DNA of 64,000 bases. Origin: Heterodontus francisci. Taxonomy: Eukaryota. Shown here one piece after another: positions 6,301-57,345 of this stretch. The notes beneath the pieces are model-generated. The model worked only from the letters and a program-made list of their open reading frames with translations. It was not told where the DNA came from and searched no databases. Each line of letters starts with the position of its first letter. Position 1 is the first letter of the stretch. The stretch covers positions 50,335,404 through 50,399,403 of the forward strand of contig NC_090387.1 of assembly GCF_036365525.1 (NCBI RefSeq), read 5' to 3'. A program made the position numbers and the translations under genes.

Positions 6301-8545
6301 ACACTAGTCAGCCTTTAAGTTTTGCCTGCAAATATTTTCAGTCTTCAGTTCTGATTAAACATACACACCTGCAACATCATGGCTTGCCATTTCTCTTTGC
6401 AGATGCTGACTGACCTGTGAATTTCTAGAAGTTTCAATTTTTAATTTCAAATCTCCAGCATTTGCTTTTTTGAGAAAAAAAAACACAAAAAAGCCTAACG
6501 TTGAAAATGAAACTTGGCAATGTTCTTCATTTGCAGGGAATGCAAACTAAAATTGACTCAAGAGTATATCAAGGGTTTCCTCTAGTATTTTAATGAGGAA
6601 ACTAAAGAAACCTTTCCTGTATAAATAATAACCTTCAATAGATATGAGCAGACGACGTGCCGAAGGACAACAAACCAACTAGCATCTCCAATCACTTTTT
6701 CTTACTACAGGAATTATAACAGAACTTTGGTAAACACAATTCAAATGTGAAAGATGGTTTTAAACTAGGGAAATGTTTGAAAGCTTAACTTCTGTATGAT
6801 ATGTTGGCATACACTGAAATTCTCAAGAAGTCTGTTTTCCTGAAGGCACTGATACACAATACACTCTCTTCCAAATGGCTAATTTTCCTCATGTGCCCTA
6901 GACAGCGAGGAAAGAAAAGCAAGTTCAGTCATAATTTCACTCATAACACCAGAAATACCATGACCAAATGTAACTGCTTTACTTCCATCAGCTAACTCAC
7001 CACAGTCCAGGAAATCAAACTTATTTGTTTGGAAAGGTCTATTGCCAATACCAACTAAGCCAATTGAAGGTCCAGAAGTCTTGTTTTAAAAGTAGTTTCA
7101 CTTCAATAATTATGTACCTATAAATGTCTTGATAATCAAAGTTGGAATTATGCCCAAACAAGTGCCAGTCATACCAGAATAGATACAAGGTTACATTTCA
7201 TGTTACATGACAAAGAACTTTAATTCATCTGGATATCAAAAATTGCCAAACACACACACTTAAAAATGCACACAACCCACAAAGGATTAAAACTACAACC
7301 AGCAGAACTCACCTTCTGAAAGATTATATAAATGAAATCTTCTCAATTTACACTGTTGAATCTTTGAGCTTTGTCAAACAGTGGCGAACAGAGATGAAAG
7401 TGGCAACAAAAGAGAATTAAACATAAATGTCAATCTACAGTTTCTCTTATAAAAGCAAAATACTGCGGATGCTGGAAATCTGAAATAAAAACAAGAAATG
7501 CTGGAACCACTCAGCAGGTCTGGCAGCATCTGTGGAAAGAGAAGCAGAGTTAACGTTTCAGGTCAGTAACCCTTCATCGGAACTTGGGTCACTGACCCGA
7601 AACGTTAACTCTGCTTCTCTTTCCACAGATGCTGCCAGACCTGAGTGGTCCCAGCATTTCTTGTTTTTATTACTGTTTCTCTTTACAGGTTTAACTGACC
7701 TGAGAAGCTCCAACATTTTGTTTTAATTTCAGATCAACATTTACAATTTTGTTGTTTATGAAATGTATCAAATACTTTTCTATACTTATTTTACACGGCT
7801 TTATTTTTTAAAAGATTACTTCGGAATGTAGGAAATCGTTAACATTTTGCGTGCAAATGCGTGAACCCATCCAATACAAGCTGAGCTACGTGTGTATTAA
7901 CGGCGCTGCTTTTGGTGACTATTTTTCTCGACAGTAGTTTATCAACAACAATTAAAAAAAACTCATTAAACGGGCGTCTTCACAACATGGCTACAGACAT
8001 TGGGCTAAATAAAAGTTTGCGATAAGAAACCGTCTCTTCCATGAGCGAGATTTACATGAATCGGGCAACGGGCCTAGTGGAGCAACAAAAGCCGCCGACA
8101 GCGCGGGGTGAGGAGAAAGGAGCGGGGGACTAAGGACGAGAAAGGCCGGCCAGGCCCAGCCACGCCTCCCCGCCCTTAGACTGACCAAGAGGCCCTGGGG
8201 CTTCCATCTAGAACAGCACGGTGACGGCAGCAACAGCGCCTGGGCCTGGACCGGGCCTCGCCGCCCTACAAAGTAACAAAGGAAGATTTACAGTCCAGGT
8301 AAAACCCGAGCAGGCGCAGCCAGGCAAAACGAAAACAAAATGAAACTAAAGACTTATGGCCCAGGTGACGGCGATTCTGCCGCCCTCCAAGTGGAGGGAG
8401 GAGGGGGGGAAGAACCCCCTCCCGCCGCCCTCCAAGTGGAAAGGGGGGGGGAGAACCCCTCAGATTAAAACAAAACTGCGATTCACCTCCTGCCGCTCTC
8501 GCTCTCCTCGGCCGTCAAGCTGAACCGGAACCAGAAACACGACCC
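3310..8545 (-). ncRNA. Putative divergent spliced transcript (lncRNA or 5' UTR exons) from the CNEP1R1 CpG island
   Basis: Minus-strand donor GAG|GTGAAT at 8486 inside the island; AAG|GTGAGT at 7312; strong acceptor ttttctttctcttcctcctctccag at 3358 followed by CAG|GTATGA at 3309. No recognisable protein. Confidence 0.35.
7450..7670. repeat. Fold-back pair of the hammerhead-bearing Penelope-type terminal repeat
   Basis: 7450-7584 is followed by an inverted copy at 7586-7670. Minus strand reads AGTT-CCGATGA-AGGGTTACTGACCT-GAAA-CG-TTA-ACT. Confidence 0.8.
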
Positions 8546-8707
8546 GACCCACGCACCGCCCCTTCACTTTTTCCCACCAATCAGGTTGCTCTTTACATGG
8601 AGGCTTCTGGCCGCTGCGAACGACCAATTAACTGTGGCCTCTGGAGACGGTGGGAGGGGGAACGGTAGGGGTGAATGGTGAGCCCGGGGCGGCTGGTGAT
8701 TGTGATG

Positions 8708-8732
8708 ATGAATTCTCTGGAACAAGCCGAAG
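8708..8732 (+). CDS. CNEP1R1: CNEP1R1 coding exon 1 (MNSLEQAE)
   Basis: ATG at 8708, with an in-frame ATG also at 8705; donor AG|GTAAAT at 8733. Confidence 0.95.
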
Positions 8733-8829
8733 GTAAATGGTGGGGAGTGGGGTTAGTAGAGGGTTTGTAGAGCCGGGCCGGATTATACTGTGTAGCAGGC
8801 GCGACATGGGTGTGTGTTTTGTATTGCAG

Positions 8830-8901
8830 ATCTCAAGGCTTTCGAGAGAAGGCTGACCGAATACATCTCCTGCTTACAGCCAGCGACAGGGCGGTGGCGA
8901 A
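8830..8901 (+). CDS. CNEP1R1: CNEP1R1 coding exon 2 ([24 protein letters not shown])
   Basis: Acceptor ttgcag at 8829; donor A|GTGAGT at 8902; phase 1/1. Confidence 0.97.
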
Positions 8902-9059
8902 GTGAGTATCCGGGTGCGTGTGTGCTCATTGGAGGGGGAGAGGGAGAGGAGGAGGAGGAGGAGGGGTGGGGGTAGTGGGTGAGAGTTGTACTTCTATATG
9001 CAATTTAATGGAGGGGACACCCCCACAGCAGCATCAATTGGTCCCATTAAACGTGCTTA

Positions 9060-9194
9060 CAAAAGCAAAATATTGTGGATGCTGGAAATTTGAAATCAAA
9101 ACAGAAAATGCTGGTGTAACCTGAAACGTTAACTCTTTTTCTCTACAGATTCTGCCAGACCTGCTGAGTGTTTCCAGCATTTTCTGTTTTTGTT
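9060..9194. repeat. Fold-back pair of the same repeat (both arms truncated)
   Basis: aaaagcaaaatattgtggatgctgg... followed by acctgaaacgttaactct...ccagcattttctgttttt. Confidence 0.75.
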
Positions 9195-9359
9195 CCCATT
9201 AAGCAGCCTGCAGGTTGCTCTATAGCTGGGGAAATGTAGTAGATTGAAAAGGTCATTATAATCGCAATGATCTGGTACAACACCTTGTTTTTATTAATGT
9301 ACGGCAACTGAAATAATGTACTAGTAAGGTGGCAACTACAAGGGGAAAAATCGCTAGGA

Positions 9360-10612
9360 TCTGGCAATCTTGTACAGTATCTATCAGTTCTTTGAGGATA
9401 TAACAAGCAGAGTGGATAAAGGGGAACCAGTAGATGTAGTGTATTTGGATTTTCAGAAGGCTTTCGATAAGGTGCGACATAAAAGGTTGTTGCACAAAAT
9501 AAGAGTTCAGGGTATTGGGGATAATGTGTTGGCATGGATTGAGGATTGGCTAACACACAGAAGGCAGAGAGTCTGGATTAATGGGTCTTTTTCAGGTTGG
9601 AAAGCCGTACCTAGTGGGTTGCAACAAGGATCTGTCCCAGGGCCTCAATTATTTACTATCTATATTAATGACTCGGAGGAAGGGACAGAGTGTAGTGTAT
9701 CCATATTTGCGAACGATACAAAAATGGTTGGGAAGGCATGTTGTGATGAGGACACAAAGAATCTGCAAAGGGATATAGATAGGTTAAGTGAGTAGGCAAA
9801 AACTTGGCAGATGGAGTTCAGTGTGGGAAAGTGTGAGGTCATCCATTTGGTAGGAAGAATAAAAAGACAGATTATTTAGATGGAGTAAGACTACAATATA
9901 CTGCAGTACAGAGGGATCTGGGTGTTCTTGTACATGAAACACAAAAAGTTAGCATACAGGAAGTATGTAATTAGGAAGGCAAATGGAATTTTGGCCTTTA
10001 TTGCTAGGGGGTTAGAGTTTAAAAGTAGAGAAGTCTGTTACAACTGTACAGGGTGTTGGTGAGGCCACACCTGGAGTACTGCATATAGTTTTAGACCCTG
10101 TATTTAAGGAAGGATATACTAGCATTGGAGGCAGTTCAGAAAAGGTTCACTAGGCTGATTCCTGGGATGAAGGGGTTGTCTTATCAAGAACGGCTAAGGT
10201 TAGGCCTTTATTCATTGGAGTTAAGAAAAGTGAGAGGTTATCTTATTGAAACATATAAGATTCTAAGAGAGTTTGACAGGGTAGATGTTGAGAATATGTT
10301 TCCACTGGTGGGGGAATTTTGAACTAGGGGACATAGTTACAGAATAAGGGTTCACACATTTAAAACTGAGATGCAAAGGAATTTCTTCTCTCAGAGGGTG
10401 GTGAATCTCTGGAATTCTCTACCTCACAGTTGTGGAGACTAGGTCACTAAACGTATTTAAGGAGGATGTATATAGATTTTTGAAATCTCGGGGAGTCGAG
10501 GGTTATGCGGAGCAGGCCCAAAAGAGGAGTTGAGGCCTGGGATAAATCAGCCACGATCTTATTGAATGGCGGGGCTGAATGGCCTACTCCTGCTCCTATT
10601 GCTTATGATCTT
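9360..10612 (+). mobile_element. CR1 LINE, 5'-truncated
   Basis: RT motifs VYLDFQKAFDKV, QGSVPGP and FANDTK; typical 3' tail ggcctactcctgctcct. Confidence 0.92.
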
Positions 10613-15940: not shown

Positions 15941-15956
15941 GTATCCTTTTTGTGGT

Positions 15957-22460: not shown

Positions 22461-22823
22461 TAGATTAGATTAGATTAGATTAGAGATACAGCACTGAAAC
22501 AGGCCCTTCGGCCCACCGAGTCTGTGCCGAACATCAACCACCCATTTAGACTAATCCTACACTAATCCCATATTCCCACCAAACATCCCCACCTGCCCCT
22601 ATATTTCCCTACCACCTACCTATACTAGTGACAATTTATAATGGTCAATTTACCTATCAACCTGCAAGTCTTTTGGCTTGTGGGAGGAAACCGGAGCACC
22701 CGGAGAAAACCCACGCAGACACAGGGAGAACTTGCAAACTCCACACAGGCAGTACCCGGAATCGAACCCAGGTCCCTGGAGCTGTGAGGCTGCGGTGCTA
22801 ACCACTGCGCCACTGTGCCGCCC
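22461..22823 (-). mobile_element. HE1-type V-SINE with (AATCT)n tail
   Basis: tRNA head TGGCGCAGTGG / GGTTCGATTCC; V-domain tgtgtggagtttgc...ccggtttcctccc; tail gggccgaagggcctgtttc. Confidence 0.9.
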
Positions 22824-23343: not shown

Positions 23344-23471
23344 AAAAGCAAAATACTGTGGATTGCAAATCTGAAATAAAAACAGAAAATGCTGATATAC
23401 TCAGCAGGTCTGAAAGTATCTGTGGAGAGAGAAATAGTTAACATTTCAGGTCTGTAACATTTCATCAGAAC
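23344..23471 (-). repeat. Single copy of the hammerhead-bearing repeat
   Basis: Minus strand GTT-CTGATGA-AATGTTACAGACCT-GAAA-TG-TTA-ACT. Confidence 0.75.
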
Positions 23472-24450: not shown

Positions 24451-26577
24451 AAGAGTCATAGAGTTATTTAGAGCATGGAAGGAGGCCATTTGGCCCATTG
24501 AATCCACGCTGGTTCTCTGCGGAGCAATCCACTCAGTCCCACTCCCCTGCTCGATCCTCATAGCCCTGCAAGTTTATTTCCTTCAAGTGCCCATCCAGTT
24601 TCCTTTTGAAATCATTGATTGTCTCTGCTTCCACCAGCCTCATGGGCAGCGAGTTCCGGGTCATTAGCACTCATTGCATAAAAAAGTTGTTCCTCACATT
24701 TCATGCCCAAAACCTTCAATCTGTGTCCCTAGTCCTTGCACCATCAGTTAATGAGAACAGTTTTTCCTTGTCTAACTAATCTAAGCCTGTCATAATCTTG
24801 TACACCTCTATCAAATCTCCCCTCAATCTCCTCTGCTCCAGGGAGAACAACCCTAGCTTTTCTAACCTAACTTTGTAATGAAAATTCCCCATTCCTTGAA
24901 CCATTCTGGTAAATCTCCTCTACACCCTCTCAAGGGCCCTCAGATCCTTCCTAAAATGTGGTACCCAGAACTGGATGCAGTTCTCTAGTTGCGGCCTAAC
25001 CACAGCTTTATAAAGGTTCAGCATAAATTATCTGCTTTTGTACTCTATGCCTCTATTTACGAAGCCCAAAATCCCATTTGCTTTGCTAACCACTCTCTCA
25101 ATATGTCCTGCCACCTTCAAAGATCAATGCACCTGAACCCCCAGATCCCAATGTTCCTGCACATTCTTTAGAACACTGCCATTAAGTTCATAATGCCTCA
25201 CCCTATTTCTTCTGCCAAAATGCATCACCTCACACTTGTCTGTATTAAATTCCATATGCCACTAGTCTGCTCATTCTGCTAGCCTATCTATGTCCTGTTG
25301 CAAGCAGTTTATAACATCCTCACTGTTTGTCACTCCTCCAAGTTTGGTAGCATCAGCAAACTTTGAAATTCTACTCTGTATTCCAAGATCCAAGTCATTT
25401 ATAAATAGCTAAAAAAAAAGTGTTTTTCAGCACTGACCCTTGGGGAACACCACTGTCTGCCATCCTCCAGTCTGAAAAACAACCATTTACCACAACTTGC
25501 TGTTTTCTGTCCTTAAGCTAATATTTTTTATCCAATTGGACACTGACCATCCTATTCATGAGCCTCAATTTTGTTAACCAACCTTTTATGTGGTACTTTA
25601 TCAAACTCTTTCTTAAAATCTTCCCTTCATCAACCTTCTCTATTACTTCATCAAAAAATTGAATTCGATTAGTCAAGCACAGTGGCGCAGTGGTTAGCAC
25701 TGCAGCCTCACAGCTCCAGGGACCCGGGTTCGATTCTGGGTACTGCCTGTGTGGAGTTTGCAAGTTCTCCCTGTGTCTGCGTGGGTTTTCTCCGGGTGCT
25801 CCGGTTTCCTCCCACAAGCCAAAAGACTTGCAGGTTGGTAGGTAAATTGGCCGTTATAAATTGTCACTAGTATAGGTAGGTGGTAGGGAAATATAGGGAC
25901 AGATGGGGATGTTTGGTAGGAATATGGGATTAGTGTAGGATTAGTATAAAATGGGTGGTTGATGGTCGGCACAGACTCGGTGGGCCGAAGGGCCTGTTTC
26001 AGTGCTGTATCTCTAAAAAAAAAAAAAGCATGATCTGCCTTTTACAAATCTGTGCTGGCTATCCTTAATTAACTCAAACCTCTCCAAGTGCCTGTTAATT
26101 TTTCCCCCTGATTATTGTTTTTAAAACCTTACCCATCACTGATGTTACACTAACTGGCCTGTAGATGCTAGGACTGTCCTTCCACCCTTTCTTGAATAAG
26201 AGTGTCACATTTGCCACTCTCCAAACCTCTGGCACCTCCCCCATATTTAGGGAAGATTGGAAGATTCTTTAGCAACCAGGGATCCAAGTCATCCAGACCA
26301 GGTGACTTATCTACCCCAAGCATAGCAAGTCTTTTCAGTACCACCTCCCTCTCAGTTTTTAACCTTTCCATTGCCTCTATTCTCTCGGCTTCTACCGATA
26401 TTTTGTCAGATTCCTCTTCCTTAATGAACACTGATACAAAGTACTCATTAAGTATTCTAGCCTTGCCCTGTACCTCTAAGCATATATTACCCTCTTTGTC
26501 CTTAATAGGCCCCACTCCACCTCTTACTATCTGCTTACTATTTACATGCTGGTAGAAGATTGGGTTCTCTTTATGTT
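24451..26577 (-). mobile_element. CR1 LINE nested in the RTE
   Basis: ILNEYFVSVF...KSPGLDDLDP; PQGSV; CR1 3' tail near 24455. Confidence 0.9.
25677..26027 (+). mobile_element. HE1-type V-SINE nested in CR1, poly(A) tail
   Basis: Same family as 22461-22823; TSD AAGCA. Confidence 0.9.
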
Positions 26578-29039
26578 GAATCTCACTATCTTCACCAATT
26601 GACTTTCTACTTTGACACCTTTCTGTACTTCACCTCATGCTTTTATCATGGCTTCCGCATAGTGTTAAAGAACAATGGTGACAGTAGACAGCCTTGTCTC
26701 ACCCCTCACCCAATTACACCAGGTTCAGTTTCACAAAATGCTATCCTGATTGTTGCAGTCTGTCCATGTACAGAGTTACAATCATTCTTTTATCTTTCCA
26801 TTCAGCTCTGATCACCTCCAGCACTTTCAACATCTTTTGCTAGTTCACCCTGTTGAAAGCTTTTTCGTAATCCACAAAGTAGGTGTAGATTTCTTGCTGG
26901 TTTTCTATGCTTCTTTCGCTTAACACCCTCATCACTGCTATAGCCTCTCTAGTGCCATAACCCTTTCTAAAACCAAATTGGTCACAGCTGATGTAATGCC
27001 TTTCTTTGCCTTCCAATCTATTTTCTAGGATCTTTAACATTACCTTGGATGCATGTGTAATCAAAGTTATAGTGCAGTTATGGTCCCATTGTAGAAGACG
27101 GCAAATACCACAAAATGTGAAGAGCACTGCACCACCAATGGTGGAGAGATTAAAATTGGGGATGTAAAAGAGGCTAGAATTAGAGGAGTGCAGATATCTT
27201 GAAGGGATGTGGGTTGGAGGAGATTACAGAGTTAAGGACGGGTGAGGCCATGGAAGGATTTAAAAACAAGGAAGAGAATTTTAAATTTGAGGCATGCTTA
27301 ACCGGGAGCCAACGTAGGTCAACAAGCACAGGGATGATGGGTGAACAGGACTGAGTGCAAGTTAGGACACGGGCAGCAGAGCTTTGAATGACCTCAAGTT
27401 TACAGACGGTAGAATGTCAAAAACCAGCAAGGAGTGCATTGGAATTGTCAAGTCTAGAGAAAGACGAGGAGGCACAGTTTACATTTGACACAATCACACA
27501 GGATGTCATTTGTGACTTTGATGAGTGGTTTCATTACTGTCGGGTGCAAACTTGATTGGAGAGATTCAAACATAGAGTTCCAGGAAAGATGGGAATGGAT
27601 TTGGGAGGTGACACGATATTCAAGGACTTTGGAGAGGAAATGGATGTAGGGAAATGGATGTAGTTAGTGTGGCTGGAGGAATCAAGTGTTAGGTTTTTGA
27701 GGAGAGGGGTGATGATGGCAGATTTGTATAGGGGACCAGAATCATTAACAGTGGCAGCTAACATAGGAGTCAGGAAGAGAAGCTGGGTATTCAGCACTGC
27801 TGTGAGAATAAGATGAGGGAGCAGGAGGTGGGTCTCGGAGACAAGATGGGCTTGGAGAGGTTTAAGAAGATGATGTGCTGCAGAGAAAAGAAGCCAGGGG
27901 TTTTCTGTGCATTCAGGATGATCCTGAAATAGTGAGCAGTTTTGTCAGCCGACAGCAGGACCTGGTAGTGATTTATGTGGTCTAGCCAGATCTTGTGGTG
28001 AATGGTTCAAGTCTTCATCCCTTGGACTTAAGGGAGCAGAGATGAGGGCTGTAATGGGGCAACGATCAGGGTGAGAGAGCATAATGGTTATAATGGGAAC
28101 TAGGATATCAACGGTGAGGGTGTGGTTGATCGGATTGGTAGCTGCAGAAATGTTGGGAATGGAGGGCCAAAGGTTAGATAGTTGGGATTTTGAAGTGCAA
28201 TTGTAAGTGAATTGGGAATGTTTTTTCTAGGGATATACACAGAAGGAATTAGGGTTGGGAGGGGGAGCAGGAAGGGGGAATGTGGGTGGAGAGAGATACC
28301 AGGAAGTGACCAGAGATGGTCTGACCTGTGATTGATACAAAGTAAGAAGGCCGTGTGATGGTAAAGTCAAGAGGGTGGTATTGAATATGGGTTGGGAGTT
28401 TATATGGAGGGAGATATTAAGGAAAGAGGAGACAGCATGATGAATTGAGATGGGAATTTGAAATCACCCAGAATGAGATCTCCGTTTATTTGCACAGATA
28501 CTGCTTGTGAATTGTTTCCTTGATCATAAAATAGGTCTAAACCAGGCAAGATTTTGAGAGTGTATCAGTAAACCTGATTCTGATGCACCATTGTTTACAT
28601 GCCCCAACTGTCTACAAAGATCTGAATTTGAAAAAATGCACTTGTAAAGATTCCTAGCTTTTATTTACGATTATCAAAAATAACTTTGCTGCTTTAGTCC
28701 ATGAAGATCACGCCTTAGAATAGTAGGGGTTCTACGTTCACACTGTAATGTGGTAGAGTATACAATTTGAATACGTGCTAGCTCCCATGTGCAGTACAGC
28801 CTGCAGCATGTTTAATAGGACCAGTTGACCCCATGTTGGGAGTATCCTCACTGTAACATCACATCCGGATCGTGTTAACTATTTGCATGAAAGGCATTTC
28901 CCTCGCCTGTGCAAACAATGTCAGTAATAGTCTTTGCGCCCTCACTTGCTGAAGTGCATCCGTCCGCTTGCCTATTTAATTGCAGATACTGGAAATCTGA
29001 AATAAAAGTAGACAATGCTGGAAATACTCAGCAGGATTA

Positions 29040-29687: not shown

Positions 29688-29893
29688 GCAAAATACTGCG
29701 GATGCTGGAAATCTGAAATAAAAGCAGACAGTGCTGGAAATACTCAGCAGGTCAGGCAGCATCTGTGGAGAGAGAAGCAGAGTTAACGTTTCCGGTTCTG
29801 TTGAAAGGTCAGACCTGAAATGTTAACTCTGCTTCTCTCTCCACAGATGCTGCCTGACCTGTTGAGTATTTCCAGAACTTCCTGTTTTTATTT
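29688..29893. repeat. Fold-back pair of the hammerhead-bearing repeat
   Basis: Arms of about 80 bp around GGTT-CTGTTGA-AAGGTCAGACCT-GAAA-TG-TTA-ACT. Confidence 0.8.
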
Positions 29894-30069
29894 GAGTATG
29901 CTAACGTGGTTCAAGTAGGGCTACCTAACAACTTTTTGTAATGAGTTCTTTATGTTGTCTGACGCAACATAAATAAGATGCGTGGAGTCGAGTTGGTTGA
30001 AGATCTCAGGTTTATTACAGCTGAACTATTATATACAATACAGAACAAACTATTTACAGAATAGTTGTT

Positions 30070-32081: not shown

Positions 32082-32905
32082 TGTTACGACCAAGTAAGAA
32101 ATGTATCTAGGGGTCTTTTGCTGTCTTTACCTGGTCTTATTGTGACAGGGTTTAATTTTAAACAGTGTTTTGAGCTCTCCCTTTGTGAATCTTTGTTCAC
32201 AGCTTTCCAATTATAAAGCAATGAGCATAAACATGCCTTCTCAGGTTTAAAGAAGAAATGTCAAATTTTATTAAACCTTAAACTCTAATACAGTTATTGT
32301 CTACAGATATACGACACGCCCACACTAGCATGCACACGTGATACACGCATGCAAATAGGGACAGAAAAGAGGAGAGGAAAATATAGTAGAGAGGGGTTTG
32401 AGGCAATATCAGAAGGGTTTCTTGTTTACTGTGCTTCGAGCTCACTTGATTGTAGGTAGTCTTGCTGTTTGTCGGAGCCCAGTGTTGTCCACGTGGGAGA
32501 CTTTTCTCTCTTTCACAAGATTCAATTCCATGGGAAAGAGATGGAGGCAGGCAGGACTGGAGGTTCTGCTTCAGTTTCAGGAGCACACGGCCTTCTGAGT
32601 TCAAATCCCTTGTTGGAAGTTCAAATCTCAACAGCCAGCTAGTCATGTGACTAAAACTGGTCTGACCACTTCTTCTGTGTTTGTGGATTCTGCTATCTTA
32701 GCAGTCAACCTGGAATGCTAGCTCCCCCCACCTTCAAGTCCATTGTTGTTTAAATGAGTCGGGATGGTCCTTTGTCCCTTGTTCCAACACTGTCTGTTAC
32801 CATGCAAATGTCTTTCCAGTCAGGGGATTGCAATTTTAAGTTTTAATGTTCTTGTGGCGAAATAACGTGTGCCTCAGTATTGGTAGGTGGGGGGCTTGCC
32901 TGACA
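32082..32905 (-). mobile_element. Solo LTR (824 bp) inserted in the Gypsy integrase
   Basis: TGTTACGACC...CCTGACA ends; imperfect 4-bp TSD CAGT/CTGT. It interrupts the integrase frame DFILVT|DDFSKFP. Confidence 0.8.
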
Positions 32906-34607
32906 CTGTGACTAAGATAAAGTCGTCTCCACTAATGGAAAATAGATCAGTGGCGATTTTAGACCAGGGGACTGATGGAATCTTGTGAGGGTGTAGAGGT
33001 TCTTTGTGTTGTTATGGCTGGTGGCTCTGACATGCCTCGCGCATCCTCACTAACCTTTCAATGTCACTGTTGATCCGTGGGCAATAAACACTGTCTTGTG
33101 CCAGTTGTCTGGTTCACTCTCTGACCCTATGGCCTTGATGAAGTTGCGACAAGATGTCCTATAAGGCCAAAAGCATCTGAGCATTTCTGACACCTCTTTT
33201 ACAGTGTCAGGCCAACCTTCTGTAATGCCTTCAGTTGTGGGTCATTCGCTGTTTCTAATTGTAGTTGGTCACATTTATGTTGACCAAAATGCAATAAATT
33301 GATTTTGAGCACATCTTCCACCTCAATGGCCATGCTATCTACTTGTAGATCCAGTGGAACTTCTTCATTCTTGCTCGGGTTTGGCAATTTGCTCAGAGTA
33401 TCCGAGATGACCATTTTGATATCCGGTTTGTAGCACATGTCAAAGTTGTACCCCTGTACTTTCACTAAGAGTCACTGTAATCAAGTGGTTTGTGCCAGAT
33501 CATCTCCAGTGGTTTGTCGTCAGTTTCCACCGTGAGCTGCTTGCCGAACAGGTAGGTGTGGAACCTTGTGTTCCCAAACACCAGAGCAACTGTTTCCTGC
33601 CCTGTGTTTGAGTAATTGGATGTGCTGAGGATAAACATTTGGATCCGAATGCAATAGGTTTGCCATTCTGCAGGATGCACACACCTAGCCCTTTCTGTGA
33701 GGCGTCGACTTTTAGGATTGTCGTCTTCCTTGGATCGTAGTACTGCAGGGTACGGGGTTCTGCTGACAGTGCTTGTTTGAGAGACTCGAACATATGCTGA
33801 TGGCCCTCCTGCCATGCAAATGGTACGTCTTTCTTTAAGAGCTCTCTCAGCGATGATGCTTTGTCAGAAAAATTTGGAATGTATGGTACCAAGAAGTTGA
33901 AAACTCCAAGATATCTCTGGAGGTCTTCCTTGGCTTGTGGAGTAGGCATACGCCTTGCATCTTCGATTTTGCCTGGGCCAGGATGGATTCTGCAACCGGA
34001 ATAGATGGAGCCAAAGAAATTGATCTGACTTGTATTCACCTGGCACTTCTTGCTGTTAAAAACAAACCCTTTGTGACGAAATACTGCCATTAGTGAATGA
34101 AGATTTCAATCGTGTTCTTCCTTGGTTTTGTCCATTACTGCAACGTCATCAGCAATGCATATACAACCAGGTACTTTTTCTATAATTATGTCCATCAGTT
34201 GCTGAAACAGATCTTGACTGATAGATAAGCTGAAGGTTTGTCTTTGGAAGCAGTATCTTCCAAATGGTGCCCTGAAGGTGGTGACTACCTGAGATTCCTT
34301 AGCTAGGTATACCGACCAATATCCATGTTTAGCATCCAATTTGGAGAAGAATTTGGCCTCTGTGAACTTTAGGGGGCATCTCTTTCGGGAGAGGTTTAGA
34401 CGCCTTGGATCTGGACATACCCCGATTGCTCCAACCTTCTTCAATACACAAGTAATTGAGCTGCACCAGTCTCCGTGATGATGCACACGACGGATGATGC
34501 CATTGCATTCCATGTGCACGCTGCACTTTCTGGGAGCGTCGATTGACGGAATGGCATCCTCTCTCGGGTGCAGTACGGCATCGCCTTTGAAATCCGCTAT
34601 GGCATTG

Positions 34608-34931
34608 GGGCGGCGCAGTGGTTAGCACCGCAGCCTCACAGCTCCAGCGACCCGGGTTTGGTTCTGGGTACTGCCTGTGTGGAGTTTGCAAGTTCTCCCT
34701 GTGACCGCGTGGGTTTCCGTCAGGTGCTCCGGTTTCCTCCCGCCAAAGACTTGCAGGTTGCTAGGTAAATTGCCCCTAGTGTAGGTAGGAGAATGGTGGG
34801 GAATATGGGATTAATGTAGGAGGGGACGTGGTAGGGAATAATGTAGGATTAGTATAAATGGGTGGTTGATGGTCGGCACAGACTCGGTGGGCCGAAGGGC
34901 CTGTTTCAGTGTTGTATCTCTCTATGACTCT
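34608..34931 (+). mobile_element. HE1-type V-SINE nested in Gypsy pol
   Basis: Same family; TSD ATTG; tail TCTATGACTCT. Confidence 0.9.
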
Positions 34932-37015
34932 ATTGAACCGGTCTGGGTACATCTGTTATAGGTCGTTGTCTGACTCAATGCGGGTACCCTTGGTCTCTTC
35001 TGCTGTAATTGGTACCTTGATGACCTCATGGATAGTTATGATGTTGAGGTCCTTGCATGTTGGTAGTCCTGGCACTTCTGGTCTGCTCCTGTCTACCAGG
35101 TAGAATATTTGCAATTTCCATGCCAGCTTGTCATAGCTGCATTGCATTGTTAGTGTGCCACTGCAAGGAATGGGAGACCCATTGTATTGAGGTAACTTGG
35201 CAGTTGTCGGTTTTGTCATTGATTTCCAACAACTCCGGTACATGTCCTTCAGGATTTGAATTGATAGGATATTTGCACTGGCGCTGGTGTCGATCTTGAC
35301 CCTGTATGTTTGCCAGGTTTCTTTGGGCACATGATGTTAATAGCGGCAAAAGCTTCCAGTTGTTTGACTTCATTAACATTGTGTCAGGTTCACAATGTGA
35401 AACGCCTTCTTGTATTTTGCTTGAGAATTGCTTCTCTAAGTCTTAGAGTCATAGTCATACAGCATCGTGTCCATGCCGGTCATCAAGCACCTAACTGTTC
35501 TAATCCCTTTTTCCTTCATTTGCCCCTTAGGCTCAGGTCTGTTTCACTGTGGACTTCGTGTATCGGCTTGTGTTTACACAGGTCTCTGGTGTTTTCCTTG
35601 CTGCTGTTGCCATGTTGCTGCGCCTGTCTTCTGTTTGTTTCTGCCCTACTGTGACTTCTGGCTGTGTCTTTGGGGCCAGATCTGTTGCATAGGCAGGCCC
35701 AGTGTCCTTTTGCACCACACACCTTGTGCATCTTTTGAAATGCAGGACAACTTCGTGGTGAGTGGGATCAACCACACTTACCACATAGCTTCCTTGCTCT
35801 TTTTGACCTGGCTATTGCGCCAATACTGTTGGCTGCACTTAGTGCTTGAAGATGCTGTTGTCCAGCTACAGTGGTTTCGTATTTTCTGTCGTCATCTAGC
35901 AGCGCATCAATGCTGTGATGTTTCCTTTTCCTCAAGAGGTCTTTCTGAAATGCTTCAATGGGTTTTGATACAATCACCAGCTCCATTATTTGGTCCAACA
36001 GCTCAGTTTCTGGGAAGTCGCATTCGTTGCCCTTATGACGGCATCTACTGATGAATTGGTCTATTGATTCCTGTGGCTGTTGCCTGTTGGACATCAATTC
36101 CAGACAGTGCATTCTAAAATTCACTCTTAATCGGAGCTGATCTTCTAGTACTTTCCATGTTTTTGTAGATCTTTCTGGACCTCTTCAGATAGCAAGAGGT
36201 GGTGTTTCTGTATAATCTCTCATTTCCAACTGCTATGAGTATTTTTACAGCCTGTTTCTCTGGTTCTGCAATCACTTGGTCCATGAAACATAACTGCATT
36301 CTTTGTTTAAAAAGTTTGAGCTTAGATAGGATATCAATGGCTTTCCAGTTCATGTTGGGAAATTTGGTATCCATACTTATGTTGTTTTGCTTACAATGTG
36401 TTTTAAGACTGGTTCTGTGACTCTGCACTGTTTCCACTTTAAGAAACTCTGGCTTCTTGGATTGAGAGGAGCAGGTGTTTTGCAGTGCTCTGTTTATCTT
36501 GCTTGCCGCACTTAAGTCTGTTTACACAGCTGTTCGTTCGGCGATTCAATGGCTTTTTTTGCTAGAGTTTGTGTAATGTTCTTCACGCTCGACTGGTTTA
36601 ATGGCATTCTTATAGTCGTGGCTTTGTGAATGAAAGCTCCTCTTCATGCTTGAGTGCTTTAATGATTTTTTAAAACTTTGGCTGCATGGATGAAGGCTGT
36701 GCCGTGATCGGGGTTTTCCTGCCTTTTACAATCATACACCTCCTGTAATGGCACTGACCTCGATCAGCCTGGGAGAGGAGTCGGGTCTCTTTCTCCTTCC
36801 CCCCCCCCCCTTTTTTTTTTTTGGAACCCGATTTACTTGCAGCCTGTCGTTCTGTACTCTGTCTTCTACAGCTGGAGGTAAGTTCCTTTATTCCTTCTAT
36901 TGTTTGGGCCAGTATTCCAGTATTTCTGTGGAACTTTCTCTCTCTTGGCTGTAGGAAGGGTAGTTTTTACAGCTGTTTCACCTGTGGTCTTCAATCTTAG
37001 ACTTTGTCTTCTCAT

Positions 37016-37289: not shown

Positions 37290-38660
37290 GATTTTGAATT
37301 TAATGTGACAGGGAACCAAAGACAGTGAAGGGAGGATTTACTATAGTATAGGATACGGTGGCAGAGTTTGGACAAGTTACAGTTTATGTAGGGTAGAACT
37401 TGAGTCTGATGAGAAAATTGCTCGTGTTATCAAACCTGGAGATATTGTGGATAATTTAGTGGTTGTGGACAGTGCTGTGATGGCGAATAAATTGCTTTAA
37501 AGCTCAGCACTGGATCTAACAGGGTACCAAAATTGAGTATCATCTGACTGATTCCTTCTTTGTGTCTTGCCAATTTAGTGATCAGTGTGCACGCTTTGGT
37601 GAGACATTAACATCGATGACATTTGTTGTATTAATGCTAAATTGGAGAAAACTTCCTCTTCAACTTGATGTTGGACAAGCCATTGGATAGAACAGAGTAC
37701 AGGGCTGTAGTGGAGAGGTAGAACTGGATGCCATTTTTATTGAAGCTGGCCCCTGGCTATAGATGATGTCACTAACAACCAGGCCATTTACCATTTAGAC
37801 ATGGATGGAAGGGTATTGAGGATAGATTTTTGGGGTACACCCAAGTTGATTATGTGGGGATAGGAGGAGTTGCCAGAAATGAACTGACTGTTGACATTTA
37901 GGAGTGAAACCAACAGCGTGCAGTGCCATGGCACTGAGTTGGAGATGGGGGGATTAGGGTGGTGAGTATGGAGGTTGGAAGCTACAGTGATGTGAGATTG
38001 GGGTGTAAGTATTGGGCAAGATTGGAAAGGAGAAGCCGAAAGAGCCAACAGGGTATCCTTCAGTTCTGATGAAAGATCACAGACCTGAAACGTTAACTCT
38101 GCTTCTCCCTCCACAGATGCTGCCAGACCTGCTATTTCCAGCACTTTCTGTTTATATTTCAGATTTCCAGCATCTGCAGTATTTTGCTTTTATGTTAGGA
38201 TATCCTTGAACTTCAAGTTGAAAAAAAGTCCATGAACATCTTATGCTTGCAGTTGAAATTATGATGCATATTAGCAGAAGAAAGGAGATGGGGTAGGTGG
38301 TTTGTTGCTAAGAACAGGAATCTTTGGTTATCCTTGCCTTGCAGGATATCCATGGAGTGTTAGGGTAACTTGACTATTGAGTGGAAGGTACATCACCTTA
38401 AGGTGATCTAGCCAGATCTGGCAGTGAATTACTAGGTCAGTTGTGTGCTTACAAGCCTGCAGCGCTCAAATTCAGTACAGGGGTGGAATTGCACAAGGTG
38501 TAACTGAGAGAATTGAAAGGGGCAAGGAAAATAAGGGAGCTGTTATGAAGGTTAACAAAAGCTGCAGTGTAATGGCATGTCGAGGGCCAGACAAGAGGAT
38601 GCTGGAATCTGAGCTGGTGGATAGTTTCCCTGAGCGAAGCTTTGGAAGTGGGTAGGGACG
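37290..38660 (-). mobile_element. Old L2 LINE remnants
   Basis: Decayed LGVPQKSIL (GVPQGSIL) RT motif and L2-like downstream sequence. Confidence 0.55.
38062..38098 (+). ncRNA. Minimal type I hammerhead ribozyme motif (in a repeat copy spanning 38062-38192)
   Basis: AGTT-CTGATGA-AAGATCACAGACCT-GAAA-CG-TTA-ACT: conserved CUGAnGA, GAAA and UH boxes, short stem I, stem II hairpin, palindromic AACGTT stem III. Confidence 0.7.
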
Positions 38661-39619: not shown

Positions 39620-41480
39620 TTCACAGAATTACAGAATTGTTATAGCACAGAAGGAAGCTATTCAGCCCGTTGTGTCCATGCTGGCTTTCCGAAGGAGCAA
39701 TTTACCTTGTGTCACTCCCCACCTTCCTTCTCCCTGTAGCTTTGCACATTTTTCAGTTAACAATCCAATTCCCCTTGAATTCCTCAATTGAACCAGCCTT
39801 CACCACACTTTTGGGCATTGATTCCAGATCCTAATAGCTGCATGAAAAAGTTTTTCCTCATGTCTCATTGCTTCCGTTGCTTCTTTTGCCAATTGCCCTA
39901 AATCTGTGCCCTCTTGTTCTCGATCCTTCCACCAGTGGGACAGGTTTTTCCTTATCTACTCTGTCCAGCCACCTCGTGATTTTGAATAACTCTATCAGAT
40001 CTCCTGTCAACTTCTCTTCAAGGAAACCAGTCCCAACTTCTCCAGTCTATCTACGTAACTGAAGTTCCTCATCCCTAGAACCATTCTTGTGAATATTTTC
40101 TGAACTCTCTCTAATGCCTTCACATCTTTCCTAAAGTGTGGTGCCCAGAACTGGACACAGTACTCCAATTGAGCCCAAATCAGTGTTTTACAAGTTCAAC
40201 ATAATGTCCTTGCTTTTGTACTGTATGCCTCTATTAATAACGCCTAGAATGCTGTATGCCTTATCAACTACTTTCTCAACCTGTTCTGCCACCTTCAAAG
40301 ACTTTTATACACATATAGACCCACATTCCTGTGCTCCTGCATCCACTTTAGAATTGTTTCCCTTATTTTATATTGTCTCTCCACGTTCTTCCTTCCAAAA
40401 TGAATCACTTCACACTTCTGTGCACTAAATTTAATCTGCCACCTGTCTGCCCATTTCACCAACCTGTCTGTTCTTTTGAAGTTCTACACTGTTGGATCCC
40501 ATCGATTACAAGGAGAGACAAAGTCCGACCGTAACTTTTAGAAACTTTATTGCAGTATATGGTTGTTACGTTGCAAGGTTACAAAAAACAAAACAAACAA
40601 CGAACAAAGAGTAAGAGGGAAGAGAGAACTCACTACAGCAAGCCTTTCTTAGTTATTCAAACAAAACTCATAACCCCCCCCCCCTTTGTTTCTGAGTGGT
40701 TCACAAACCTCCGCAATTTCGTGTTGTCAGAGCCTGATTGGTATACTCGTTGACTGACCATCAACAATGGGCAGCTAATAAGCTATCTGCAGTTGTCCTG
40801 TTAGCTTCTGCTTGTTATTGTTACAAGTTGACTCCACAGCATCACAATTAGTTGATTAGCTTACTTTTAATCTGTTCTCACAGTCACTTTTACTCTGTTC
40901 CCACAGTTACACTATTCTCCTCACTTCACAGTGCTTTCAAGTTTCGTATAATTTGCAAACTTTGAAATTGTGCCCTGTACACCAAGGCCTAAGTCATTAA
41001 TATATATCAGAAAGAGTAAGGGTCCTAACACCGACCCCTGGGGAACTCCACTACAAACCTTCATCCAGTTCCAAAAACATTTGTTAACCACTACTCTTTG
41101 TTTCTTGTCACTCAGCCAGTTTCGTATCCATGTTGCTATTGTCCCTTTTATTCCATGAGTTATAACTTTGCTCACAAGTCTGCTGTGCAGCACTGTATCA
41201 GATGTCTTTTGGAAGTCCATGTGCATGACATGATATGCATTACCCTCATCAACCCTCTCTGTTACCTCATCAAAAAGCTCCAGCAAGTTAGTTAAACATG
41301 ATTTGCCCTTAACAAATCTATGCTAGCTTTCCTTAATTGGCCCACAATTGTCCAAGTGGCTATTCATTTTGTCTCGAATTATCGTTTCCAGGAGCTTCCC
41401 CACCACTGAGGTTAAACTGACTGGCTTGTAGTTGCTGGGCTTATCTTATTCTCCAGCCCTCTGGTACCACCCCTGAATCT
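39620..41480 (-). mobile_element. CR1 LINE, 5'-truncated
   Basis: HMDFQKTSD, GVPQGSVLGPLLFLIYINDL, KFANYTK. Confidence 0.9.
40490..40908. mobile_element. Insertion of about 420 bp (solo-LTR-like) inside a CR1
   Basis: TGTTGGA...TCCCACA near-inverted ends; TACAC flanks both sides; the CR1 resumes after it. Confidence 0.55.
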
Positions 41481-49289: not shown

Positions 49290-50525
49290 TAAGAATATAA
49301 ACAGGAACAGAAGTAAACCATTTGGCCCCTCGCATCTGCTCTGCCATTTAATAAATCTTCCACCTCATCTACGCCTTCCTGTACTATCCCCCCCACATCC
49401 CTTCATTCCCTTAGTATCCAAAAATGTATCGATCTCTAACCTGAAAATATATATATATATATATATATTGAGCATCTGCAGCTCTCTGCAGTGGAGTATT
49501 CCAAATATTCACAACCCTTTTGAGTGAAGAAACCTCTCCTCAACTTAGTCCTAAATGGCCAACCTGTTATTTTGACACTATGACCCCGAGTTCTAGACTC
49601 CTCAGCCAGTGAAACATTCTCCCAGCATCTACCCTGTCAAGACCCTTCAAAATTTTATGTTTTTTATTTTTTTATTTAGAGATACAGCACTGAAACAGGC
49701 CTTTCGGCCCACCGAGTCTGTGCCGACCATCAACCACCCATTTACACTAATCCCATATTCCTACCACATCCCCACCTATCCCTATATTCCCCTACCACCT
49801 ACCTATACTAGGGGAAATTTATAATGGCCAATTTACCTATCAACCTGCAAGTCTCTGGCTGTGGGAGGAAACCGGAGCACCTGGCGAAAACCCATGCAGA
49901 CACAGGGAGAACTTGCAAACTGCACACAGGCAGTACCCAGAATGGAACCCGGGTCGCTGGAGCTGTGAGGCTGCGGTGCTAATCACTGCGCCACTGTGCT
50001 CATTTCTCATTCATCTAAACTCCAGGGAATATGGGCCTAGTCTACTAGTCTACTCAATCTGTCCTCACAGGTCAGTCCCCTCCCTAGGAATCAGTCTAGT
50101 GAACCTTCTTTGCACTCCCTGTAAGACAAGTACATTCTTCCTTGGGTAAGGAGACCAAAACTGTACGCAGTACTCCAGCTGTAGTCTTACCAAGGCCCTA
50201 TACAATTTCAGTAAGACTTCTTTACTCCTAGCCTTTATTACAAAGTGGTTGGAGTATAACACACCATTTGTTTTCCTAATTGCTTGCTGTACCTGAATGT
50301 TAACTTTGTGTTTTGTGTACCCAAGGACACACAAATCTCTCTGAATACATTTCCCAGTCTCTCGCCATTTAAAAAATATTCTGCTTTTCAATTTTCCTAC
50401 CAAAGTGGATAACTTCACATTTCTCCACATTATATTCCATCTGCCACGTTCTTGCCCACTCATTTAACCTGTTTAAATCCTTTTGCAGCCTTTTTGCGTC
50501 CTCCTCACAGTTTACTTCCCCGTCT
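49290..50525 (-). mobile_element. CR1 LINE 3' portion, interrupted by a SINE
   Basis: LYRALVRLQLEYCVQFWSP...VQRRFTRLIP. Confidence 0.88.
49660..49999 (-). mobile_element. HE1-type V-SINE nested in CR1
   Basis: Same family; A-rich tail. Confidence 0.9.
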
Positions 50526-54059: not shown

Positions 54060-54385
54060 AGCACCAACCGTGGCTTAGTTGGTTGTACTCTCGCCTCTGA
54101 GTCAGAAGGTTGTGGGTTCAAGTCCCACTCCAGAAGCTTGAGCCTATAATCTAGACCAACACTGCAGTGTAGGACTGAGAGAATGCTGTGTTGCCAGAGG
54201 TGCCATCTTTTGATTGAGATCCCATCTGCTGTCTTGTGGACGTAAATGATTGCGTGGCACTATTCAAAGAAGAGCAGGGGCGTTCTCCTGGCCAAGCCAA
54301 CATTTATCAGTCAAGCAGCATCATTAAAACAAAATTATCTGGACATTATCACACTGCTGTTTATGGAACTTTTCTGTGAGCAGGT
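54060..54385 (+). mobile_element. DeuSINE copy
   Basis: A box tggcttagttgg; B box ggttcaagtcc; core aagaagagcaggg...ctcctgg...ttatc. Confidence 0.75.
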
Positions 54386-56343
54386 TTGGGAGTGAGAATG
54401 GCAATTGAGCTCTGTTTTTGTAATTAAAAGGGCAAGAATTTATGGGAGCATTCAGAGGTTGCAAAAGGGGCACAGATTGGTGAGAATTCTGAAAATTTGC
54501 TATCTTGAGTTGAAGCCAAACATTTGAAACCAAGTTATCAAACAGACCTGTAAAGACGATTGCAGGCAGACAAGCAACATGAATTGTATTTTAAATATTG
54601 CCAGTGTTGGAATTGCTTGTGTCTCGTTTAATTCTACTGGATAAGTTATTTTAAAATACTCAGTTCCATCGAAACTTGTACAATTGATTACAGGGGTTTC
54701 TTTCCATTGATGCCTTCTAGTTATCTTCATGAAAACTATGTAAGCAAATTTCAGCTGAAGATAAATGATTTCTTTTAGAACTGGTACAGTTTCTTTTCAA
54801 AATGGGTTGCTCCTGCAATGCTCAAGATGTCATCCAAAGCATTTTAGCTCTTCGCGTATCTTCAAATTTATTCTTCAATGACTTGCTTCTGATTTAATCA
54901 CTTTGGAAAATGGGATCATTTTTGAATTGAAGATGTTAAAACTCAGGTCATATAAATAAAGTTACCAGCAGATGGCCCATGACTGTGCTCCTGGGTAGTT
55001 TGACCCTGGAGAATGTTTGCGATAACTGCTAATCTGTCCTGTGCTTTTAAGGCCACTCCGCAAGTATTCGCCATGCAAATCTAGATAATTTTAGTTGCTT
55101 GTAAATTCTTCCAGTGAACTTGAGGCCAGTATATTGTTTGCAAGTTTCAAATTTTATAATTGGATTTGCTTTCTCTATCTAAAATTATTTTGTATCAAAA
55201 ACAAAGTATCACAGATGCATCCTGGATGCAAAACTCTTTATATATGCGTAGGTGTGCCATGATGATGCTCTCAGTAAGAGGCTATGATATGGATGAGGTG
55301 GGAAACTGAGGAAGGGGTGGACATTTCTAATTAAAGAATTTGGAAAGAAGTCCATTAGAGACCTGTCCAGAGAAAGCAACTTTTTTTTTATGATTGTTCA
55401 TGGAAAATGAATAATTCTGTTTTCCTTGCTCACTGCTGACAGATTATGGCAGGATCGCTCTTCAATCCTTGCTAAGTGATGGCCATTACATCAGACCCTA
55501 ACCTCATTTTAAACAGTTAAGCAAATCTATTAAATAATTCTGTAATATAATAATGAAATAAAAGCAAACCATCTCAAGCAACGCAAACTATGAATTTTTG
55601 AACTTCATCCATGATAATTAGTATTGTATAATTATTTATTGTAAATGAACAATGGTAGGTGCTGTAATTATTCAAAATAAATTGCAAAAGTGAAGATTCC
55701 ACTTTGAAATTGGTATTTTATTAAAAATGTTTGAACATAATTACCTAAATTGTATTTTTGAAGAAAATTACCCCAATAAAGAATTTAAGCATTACCTTTT
55801 TGTTCATTAATTAAGGATTGGGGAGGAACAGAATATGTATGATTGCAGTTATAGACAAAACATATAAAGAAATATCTCGGTATTGTTTATCCTATCAAAA
55901 GTTATTTCATTAGAATTCATGCATTACATTGCTTTCAGATTTCAAATCAGAAAAGCGTTTATTTTTAACATTCAAACTCCAAAATTATTTCCTGATCTGT
56001 TGTATGATTTTCTATTACTTGGAAATGAGATAAGGGAGCCAACTTGCAAGCATCAGCTGCTGGCACGTTCAATGAGTGACATCGTGCTGTTTTTAAAAAA
56101 AAAAAATGTCTTAAACTTATTGGGATGATGTTCAAAAGCTCATGATTTATGTTACTTTGAGATGGTTTGCTATTTTTGTCTATTATATTACATCTTCATT
56201 ATTTAATAAATTAATAGTTTAAAATGAGGATATGTTCTGATGTAATGTTTTTTCACTTATCAAGGATTTAAGAGAGATCCTGTGGAGGCATAAGAATAAG
56301 TCCAGGAGCTGAATAATAATTAACAGTGGTTTCTGATCATATT

Positions 56344-56672
56344 TAGAGTCATAGAGAGATACAGCACTGAAACAGGCCCTTCGGCCCACCGAGTCTGTGC
56401 TGACCAACAACCACCCATTTACACTAATCATACATTAATCCCATATTCCTTACCACATCCCTACCATTCTCCAACCACCTACCTACACTAGGGGCAATTT
56501 ACTTTGGCCAATTTACCTATCAACCTGCAAGTCTTTTGGCTGTGGGAGGAAACCGGAGCACCCGGCGGAAACCCACGCGGTCACAGGGAGAACTTGCAAA
56601 CTCCGCACAGGCAGTACCGAGAACTGAACCCGGGTTGCTGGAGCTGTGAGGCTGCGGTGCTAACCGCTGCCC
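56344..56672 (-). mobile_element. HE1-type V-SINE
   Basis: Same family; tail TCTATGACTCTA. Confidence 0.9.
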
Positions 56673-57030
56673 AGAGTGTCTGTCTGAATGTTTTATTTAC
56701 CTAACAAGGCTAGTGAAATCACTTTGAACGACATGGGGAGTCTATATATAAAATGAGTCCCAAGAAAGATCTAAATTAAAGATGGATAGAAAAGTTCCAA
56801 AAATTTTAATAGGATTGAATTTTAATTTAATCTTGGGCCTTGAATTATCAGGCTATTAATTGGCTGTGGAATGAAACAATGTCTCAAATAAAGGCTTTTT
56901 CTCCTGAAACTTCTGGTGGCTAATGGGAAAGGACCGTGGTTCTGAAGTAATTTTACACAGCTTGCTTTGCTACATTTTTTTGCAATGAATACAATCATAA
57001 CAGTTTACAGGACAGAAATAACTACTTTAA

Positions 57031-57345
57031 TAAAAGCAAAATACTGCGGATGCTGGAAATCTGAAATAAAAACAAGAAATGCTAGAAATACTCAGGTCTG
57101 GCAGCATCTGTGGAGAGAGAAGCAGAATTAATGTTTCAGGTCAGTGACCCTTCTTCAGAACTAGCAAATATTAGAAATGTGAAAGGTTATAAGCAAGTAA
57201 AGCGGGGGTGGAGCGAGAGATAACAAAGGAGAAGGTGTAGATAGGACAAGGTCACAGAATAGCTGACCAGAAGGTCATGGAGCAAAGGCAAACAATATGT
57301 TAATGGTGTGTTGAAAGGCAAAGATAGGGTGTTAACGGACTGAAG
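57031..57345 (-). mobile_element. Longer copy of the hammerhead-bearing repeat (Penelope-type 3' end)
   Basis: Minus strand AGTT-CTGAAGA-AGGGTCACTGACCT-GAAA-CA-TTA-ATT at 57126-57162, plus about 180 bp of extra element sequence; possible TSD AACTACTT. Confidence 0.75.

Follow-up and report, generated by a model that had tools for sequence, protein, structure and literature searches.

Introduction

What kind of element has scattered a unit of about 135 bp, built around a minimal hammerhead ribozyme (HHR), through the genome of Heterodontus francisci? The question arises from a stretch of 64,000 nucleotides of contig NC_090387.1 (assembly GCF_036365525.1, forward strand, positions 50,335,404 to 50,399,403), referred to here as the window, in which a sequence-only reading had named eight sites of the unit. 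These had been taken both for pseudo-long terminal repeats (pLTRs) of a Penelope-like element (PLE) and for a non-autonomous, retrozyme-like element. We conclude, with a probability of about 0.85, that the repeats arose by 5'-truncated and inverted insertion of the 3' pLTR of an autonomous PLE that encodes a reverse transcriptase (RT) and a GIY-YIG endonuclease and is intact elsewhere in the genome, the short copies (stubs) being likely run-off cDNAs of uncleaved RNA and not a separate ribozyme element.

Minimal hammerheads are known in the PLE pLTRs of fish, coelacanth, frog and reptiles (PMC4209133), the field has been reviewed (PMC6155905; PMC6765202, the latter covering dimeric cleavage), and an expansion of PLEs has been reported in the whale shark (10.1101/443036). 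The questions on which such a family bears are the role of the PLE hammerhead and the origin of pLTRs, tails and inverted ends.

Results

The parent element

The 30 best genomic loci holding the unit share one common 3' end, and most of them continue into shared sequence. In five of the 30 this common sequence extends for more than 1.5 kb and encodes both an RT and a GIY-YIG endonuclease, with the two frames broken, so that the attachment to such genes anticipated by the sequence-only reading does exist. A protein search of the genome returned at least 14 matches with the same 924-codon stop-to-stop frame among the 150 matches listed. Four of these frames stand in a tandem array with a period of 3,301 bp, where the unit ends each monomer and precedes the next open reading frame (ORF); the array opens with a partial copy and with a tail-less copy in inverse orientation, a pLTR structure. 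The unit is thus continuous with an RT and GIY-YIG parent, which bears out its earlier identification as a Penelope pLTR with a minimal hammerhead.

Positions in the element are numbered on its sense strand from the first base of hammerhead stem I (coordinate 0); the predicted cut falls behind the triplet GUU, between +32 and +33. The parent has a single ORF of 916 codons, whose first ATG lies at +172, that is, 172 nt past the first base of the hammerhead. Its translation shows the motifs DKG, YIDD and VVY..CxxC..YIG, two cysteines within the GIY-YIG domain and, between RT and endonuclease, a CX4CXXC linker (CNRRRCNTC). Pfam matches to RVT_1 (E 6e-6) and GIY-YIG (E 0.002) were both under the curated cut-offs; homologs of the parent have the same domains, the closest named one being from Chiloscyllium (71%). 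Ten parent ORFs differ at 0-27 of 2,751 nt, and the parent lineage is therefore young. A CX2-5CxxC linker marks Neptune or Nematis and is absent from Poseidon (Craig et al., 2021, PMC8557442, as far as cited here), and only Neptune and Poseidon are reported from vertebrates in the available text of a recent preprint (10.64898/2026.07.22.740005). The parent probably belongs to the Neptune clade, a placement made by motifs and not by a tree with named references, which counts against it.

Several ORF-bearing copies (L042, L043, L044, L047, L053, L054 and L061) have an open frame of 484-485 codons that terminates within the RT in one and the same shifted frame; they possibly form a common frameshifted sub-lineage.

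Copies in the genome and their 3' ends

The genomic population was sampled in 140 evenly spaced 10-kb stretches, taken from large contigs and not at random from the assembly as a whole; 7 of 119 arms were dropped as lying at stretch edges, and 25 near-identical-scoring copies on small contigs were excluded from every count. The sample holds 93 loci (74 solo and 19 inverted), corresponding to about 66 loci/Mb or roughly 4e5 loci in the 6.0-Gb genome, and element matches make up 3.1% of the sampled bases. Copy depth is 116 at +60 and 1.6 at the start of the ORF. Copies run unbroken into the 3' untranslated region (UTR) and ORF of the parent, with lengths from about 60 bp to 2.6 kb, and the stubs follow the parent subfamilies. 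On many small contigs (L191-L215) an old copy of the unit is found within a larger repeated segment (25 loci with identical scores, four of them compared), possibly a segmental or satellite-like amplification.

The 3' ends fall into two groups, +96..104 and +133..136, matching the 30-40 bp tail known from PLEs (PMC3846280) and the pair of sites at which RT starts in the anole element (PMC11167929). Of the inverted pairs that could be classified, 15 of 17 join one tailed and one tail-less arm (P ~0.001); in each of the other two, a tailed arm is joined to a shorter arm. Of the 74 solos, 18 are flanked by target duplications of 8-16 bp, compared with 0.3% in a control with mismatched pairings; overall their lengths vary from 7 to 16 bp. 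Tandem arrays of stubs were found at none of the 93 sampled loci and at none of the eight window loci, the only tandems seen being full ORF-bearing monomers.

These data bear directly on the possibility that the unit is a distinct non-autonomous ribozyme retroelement of about 135 bp, retrozyme- or SINE-like (SINE, short interspersed element) and derived from a pLTR, which spreads through its own self-cleaved or circular RNA. Stubs outnumber 5' ends of the ORF by about 70:1, many have a fixed length and target duplications, and animal retrozymes have been argued to derive from PLE pLTRs (10.64898/2026.07.22.740005). The same preprint, however, defines retrozymes as tandem repeats in the text cited here, and no such stub array occurs among the 93 loci; moreover, the stubs equal each parent subfamily base for base, their lengths grade into those of long copies, and a cleaved unit should start at +33, where none of 96 arms does. 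The proposal is largely refuted and we regard it as very improbable. With two fixed 3' ends, continuity into the parent and no tandem arrays at the 93 loci, the retrozyme-like part of the sequence-only reading is not supported.

The inverted pairs, at 19 of 93 loci, would also suit the terminal inverted repeat of a DNA transposon (a miniature inverted-repeat transposable element) in which the resemblance to a hammerhead is incidental. Their arms, however, are unequal, their joining points and the lengths of their target duplications vary, and the continuation of the unit into an RT and GIY-YIG ORF refutes this explanation, to which we give virtually no credence.

The 5' ends of the copies

Among 63 arms that reach +2, 22 stop at 0..+2, a proportion that amounts to 15 of 29 for arms with 90% or more identity to the intact element. 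Per base, the stop rate is 0.116 at 0..+2, 0.012 over +3..+26 and 0.004 over -30..-3. No stop was seen at the predicted cut (+32..34) in 96 arms, a count that allows for up to about 3%. Solos starting at -4..+3 are abutted by a target duplication of at least 8 bp in 8 of 18 cases, compared with 0.3% in the control, and the upstream flanks of the solos in the peak are unrelated, bar one pair. An alignment artefact caused by a diverged UTR was rejected as the source of the peak, which is strongest in young arms and abutted by target duplications. Because the 5' ends pile up at the first three bases and none lies at the cut, the integrated copies appear to come from RNA not cut by the hammerhead; the stubs were likely copied from such uncut RNA, in agreement with the results obtained for the anole element (PMC11167929).

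Thirteen starts lie at +27..+38, four of which adjoin the end of a common unrelated repeat, and several are fold-back junctions. Four copies (L145:8562, L155:4829, L182:8055 and L160:1304) are cut at TTAA in the hammerhead palindrome, where they adjoin the end of a common unrelated repeat; these breaks are likely insertions of DNA transposons at the palindrome and could mimic a cleavage footprint. Starts at +29..31, considered as such a footprint, yielded none, since they partly adjoin the unrelated repeat end.

The simplest cause of the 5' peak would be that the RNA begins there. We mildly favour a start of transcription at the base that opens stem I; the surrounding YCAGTTC is initiator-like and fits an initiator consensus. 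In Drosophila virilis, Penelope has an internal TATA-less promoter (PMC2377424).

Several observations weigh against a start at this base. The 5' ends were read from the limits of BLAST alignments and are uncertain by a few bases; a profile hidden Markov model (HMM) spreads them over about -4..+1. The base before copies that start at 0 is A in five, T in three and G in two, with no G excess and therefore no cap signature. After removal of 7 of 32 rows that were duplicates or edge-cut, 25 distinct ORF-bearing copies remained; 17 of them start well upstream of the hammerhead and only 2 start at it, so that long templates (multimeric RNA) or template switches between pLTRs are also needed. Assembled contigs cover the element without start, end or strand information. 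Finally, the position of the peak resembles a 3' splice site, and an intron of D. virilis Penelope ends at the corresponding position, at helix I (PMC4209133).

This last resemblance belongs to an explanation that shares the same parent and sees in the peak an RNA-processing point, namely a 3' splice site that ends with the AG of stem I, or a stop imposed on the RT by structure at the base of the hammerhead. Consistent with it, a branch-point-like CTAAT, pyrimidines and CAG precede stem I, the D. virilis intron ends at helix I (PMC4209133), with 46 bp of exon following the start (PMC2377424), and the stop rate is already about threefold higher across +3..+26. Splicing, however, would be expected to leave an upstream exon in the stubs, whereas the stubs have flanking sequences that resemble neither one another nor the element, with target duplications directly adjoining the first base; and an RT proceeding 3' to 5' should, we infer, stall where it enters the fold (+36) and not where it leaves it. 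We consider a processing point or stall unlikely as the origin of the peak. The spliced look of one copy (L062) corresponds to a microhomology deletion, not to GT..AG.

Just before the first ATG of the ORF there is a candidate intron of 96 nt (L106:8510-8605), with GT at +74 and AG at +168-169, whose removal (+74 to +169) would put an upstream ATG in frame with the ORF. Some PLEs have a spliceosomal intron near the pLTR. The candidate contains both 3' end sites, and their position there could explain intron retention. Its GT..AG joint was absent from four contig sets, an absence that proves nothing in assembled contigs; all 22 runs listed were of this kind, and most were only guessed to be RNA.

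The hammerhead motif

On the sense strand of the element, the minimal type I hammerhead layout of the sequence-only reading was recovered with a descriptor, which matched twice in the window, where 60 Markov-shuffled windows lead one to expect 0.017 matches per 64 kb, and which found 38 motifs over 1.4 Mb of sampled genome. The register is AGUU / C(U or C)GAnGA / bulged A / 5-bp stem II / GAAA-CG-UU / AACU, from which the triplet GUU and a stem I of 4 bp (AGUU with AACU) follow. The register proposed earlier (CG-UUA-ACU) is one base off and yields a mismatched stem I; this stem, once given as 3-4 bp, has four. A scan of Rfam, uninformative for so minimal a motif, gave no match to a hammerhead family and four weak microRNA (miRNA) matches to the hairpin at 29688.

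In 16 aligned copies, helices I and II, with a palindromic 15.2-16.2 and a bulged base behind A9, have 92% of their stem cells paired, compared with 14-46% in slid-register controls. As for covariation, one pair varies on both sides (A-U, G-U or G-C by subfamily), a signal no higher than in shuffles, 398 of 500 of which attain it. Using a nearest-neighbour model for the 37-nt young motif, the active dimer was placed at -13.7 kcal/mol, versus about -15.7 for two monomers and -24.8 for an inactive dimer; in all three motif variants the active dimer is less stable than the alternatives, core tertiary contacts being ignored by the model. Given its GUU triplet, a 4-bp intermolecular stem III and, in the young lineage, U4C, the hammerhead is predicted to be weak and likely needs the protein of the element or a partner RNA. 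As judged from its layout, it is of the minimal PLE type already described.

A total of 67 arms were sorted by one diagnostic base outside the motif, giving an older group of 41 and a young group of 24. The older group has U4 in 39 of 41 arms, the canonical U4-G5, and a stem II closed by A-U (18) or G-U (17); in the young group C4-G5 is found in 21 of 24 and G-C closes stem II in 23 of 24, and C4 is also found in all 16 motifs that stand directly before an ORF. In its core the young, intact lineage carries the change U4C, and the older copies keep the canonical bases. The age of the older group is supported independently by CpG decay of the palindrome, which is intact in 14 of 41 older arms versus 22 of 24 young ones. 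The canonical CUGA was also considered as a CpG decay product of CCGA and this was rejected: positions 4-5 read TG in 39, TA in 2 and CA in 0 of the 41 older arms, and the absence of CA indicates that U4 is not a decay product. U4C is reported to lower cleavage considerably in vitro while remaining compatible with viroid infectivity (PMC3088659).

A further alternative is efficient dimeric cleavage by the hammerhead within tandem transcripts, which would supply the template for new insertions. The tandem array does set motifs 3.3 kb apart on one RNA, and the palindrome and stems are kept across subfamilies, with 10.1-11.1 pairing as A-U, G-U or G-C. Nevertheless, there are no starts at the cut and those at +27..+38 are in part repeat ends or fold-back junctions, the young lineage carries the U4C change reported to lower activity (PMC3088659), the active dimer is not favoured energetically, and HHR mutants had no effect on insertion of the anole element in vitro (PMC11167929). 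Efficient dimeric cleavage as the source of templates is, in our judgement, improbable.

The copies in the window

All eight sites named by the sequence-only reading hold the repeat, as determined by BLAST with three window copies (seven at E<=1e-11 and 6345 at E 3e-7). A profile HMM of 103 genomic arms scored 12 arms in the window and had 0 matches in the reversed window. The copies and their parts are as follows:

6343..6465, plus strand: very decayed pLTR stub with a broken hammerhead core (nhmmer E 2.6e-10, alignment)
7449..7584, minus strand: tailed arm, unit 0..+135, 95.6% identical to the intact element and beginning at the first base of the hammerhead
7584-7548, minus strand: hammerhead with U4C, inside the tailed arm 7449..7584
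7586..7671, plus strand: tail-less inverted arm, +12..+100, from the same insertion as 7449..7584
7440 and 7675: 9-bp repeat around the inverted pair 7449..7671, a likely target duplication
7673..7744, plus strand: weak extra fragment of the unit, an older or partial copy (nhmmer E 2.7e-4; blastn E 5e-4)
9061..9194: inverted pair of a tailed arm (9114-9061, minus strand, +80..+133) and a tail-less arm (9119-9194, plus strand, +21..+100), the CUGAnGA half absent; 9-bp repeat at 9042 and 9194
23344..23471, minus strand: solo tailed stub, +1..+133, 81% identity, beginning at the second base of the hammerhead, with stem II and palindrome broken
28980..29035, minus strand: short fragment, +66..+120, with no hammerhead
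29688..29896: inverted pair of a tailed arm (29796-29688, minus strand, +21..+129) and a tail-less arm (29795-29896, plus strand, +1..+104), core broken
38062..38193, plus strand: solo tailed stub, 0..+135, with a canonical core and one stem II mismatch; 7-bp repeat at 38054 and 38201
57029..57353, minus strand: 5'-truncated copy extending into the parent 3' UTR (BLAST to 57323; common to other copies to ~57344); hammerhead 57162-57126 with a decayed palindrome; 8-bp repeat at 57020 and 57354

The sites had been presented as single units. Four are indeed solos (23344, 28981, 38062 and the decayed 6345), whereas 7450, 9060 and 29688 are inverted pairs and 57031 is a longer 5'-truncated copy; 6345 and 38062 run opposite to the remaining sites. 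The statement that nearly all copies have no ORF stood, as no window copy has ORF sequence (tblastn of the parent protein against the window gave no match). The hammerhead quoted for the unit turned out to be a composite, and the perfect motif is found in no window copy: 7450 has U4C, 57031 a palindrome without CG and 38062 a stem II mismatch, stems or core are broken in 23344 and 29688, the CUGAnGA half is missing from 9060 and 28981, and 6345 is decayed. Flanking repeats of 7-9 bp are found at 4 of the 8 loci, and likewise 4 of the 8 have an arm that begins at the 5' peak, on the first bases of the hammerhead. The pair at 29688..29896 forms a long hairpin that attracts spurious miRNA matches. 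The eight copies are likely inert debris, intronic or intergenic.

Neighbouring features

The pair at 9061..9194 sits directly 3' of exon 2 of a TMEM188/CNEP1R1-like gene, whose first two coding exons lie at 8708-8902 on the plus strand; the second of them matches Pfam PF09771 above the cut-off. Both lie within a CpG island (about 8000-9000), and a first exon on the minus strand, head-to-head with them, is likely near 8500. Broken pieces of an LTR-type retroelement with integrase core and RNase H domains occupy 31203-34105 on the minus strand. Fragments of RT of the long interspersed element (LINE) type (Pfam RVT_1), unrelated to the Penelope-like element, lie at 9358-9795 (plus strand) and 40921-41322 (minus strand). 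A second dispersed family of about 340 bp, which we take to be SINE-like, has six copies that are 85-97% alike (22480-22818, 25674-26027, 34602-34934, 49660-50000, 56344-56680 and 62233-62563).

Discussion

A route from the parent element to the stubs can be proposed as follows. The RNA of the element would begin at the first base of stem I, and the protein would use nicks in AT-rich DNA to prime reverse transcription at either of two U-rich leader sites. This priming step is modelled on in vitro results for the anole element, in which RT initiates internally at two tail-defining sites and both strands are extended, HHR mutants being without effect on insertion (PMC11167929). A cDNA begun in the upstream pLTR would reach the 5' end of the RNA after 100-136 nt and be integrated as a stub; if both target strands were primed, one at each site, joining of the cDNA ends would give an inverted pair.

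In a more tentative version, which we regard as possible but less probable than not, the hammerhead would be the first thing transcribed and the stubs of 100-136 bp, which number in the hundreds of thousands, would be strong-stop-like cDNAs, primed in the leader and run off the 5' end of the RNA, which would normally transfer to the downstream pLTR and give full copies and partial tandems. Priming at two sites would account for the asymmetric inverted insertions, and the ribozyme might act as a brake or off-switch rather than making templates, weakened in the successful lineage by U4C with a tightened stem II.

Taken as a whole, this is mostly known biology, real and with a testable mechanistic lead; both the motif and the element that hosts it are of known kinds. 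The family constitutes a large natural record of the start and stop points of reverse transcription. The intact young element could be put into the in vitro assay that exists for the anole element, and the natural pair of cores, U4 in old copies and C4 in young ones, could test whether cleavage matters. No account of a stub class starting at the hammerhead or of U4C in a PLE was found in the literature searched, although subscription papers, Repbase or supplements may hold one.

Compared with the minimal HHR of metazoan PLE pLTRs (Cervera and De la Peña, 2014, PMC4209133), the motif described here is alike in its type I layout, a 4-bp helix I, an unpaired base between A9 and 10.1, a palindromic 15.2-16.2 and the lack of a loop 3, as well as in its location in both pLTRs and in occurring mostly as single motifs from truncated elements. 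It differs in helix II, which has 7-8 bp in the Schistosoma mansoni families and 5 bp here, in its GUU triplet, and in the U4C of the young lineage, which a CUGAnGA descriptor misses. Cartilaginous fish go without mention among the hosts in the available parts of that paper.

The parent resembles the endonuclease-bearing PLEs of the Neptune/Nematis kind (PMC8557442; Arkhipova et al., 2013, PMC3846280) in its single ORF with RT and C-terminal GIY-YIG, the DKG motif, the CX2-5CxxC linker, two cysteines inside GIY-YIG, partial tandems, inverted 5'-truncated copies, a tail of 30-40 bp at one end and variable target duplications. It differs in its very high copy number, estimated at about 4e5 loci, and in having a sharply defined class of stubs, 100-136 bp long, that start at the hammerhead; what is cited of those two papers describes no class of this kind.

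With PAc, the Poseidon element of Anolis carolinensis (Frangieh et al., 2024, PMC11167929), the family shares two tail-delimiting RT start sites just 3' of the hammerhead, AT-rich targets, a tandem organisation and the lack of ends at the cut site. The ORF of PAc starts within the hammerhead and its RT start sites lie in an AC-rich stem-loop inside the ORF, whereas here the first ATG is at +172 and both 3' ends fall in U-rich tracts upstream of it; the CX4CXXC linker, absent from Poseidon, is present in the parent.

Finally, the non-LTR retrozymes (Li et al., 2026, 10.64898/2026.07.22.740005) are alike in being short, non-coding and PLE-related, with a type I hammerhead. They are, according to the text cited, tandem repeats with at least two consecutive motifs, whereas the stubs of H. 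francisci are solo or inverted and are parts of an autonomous element.

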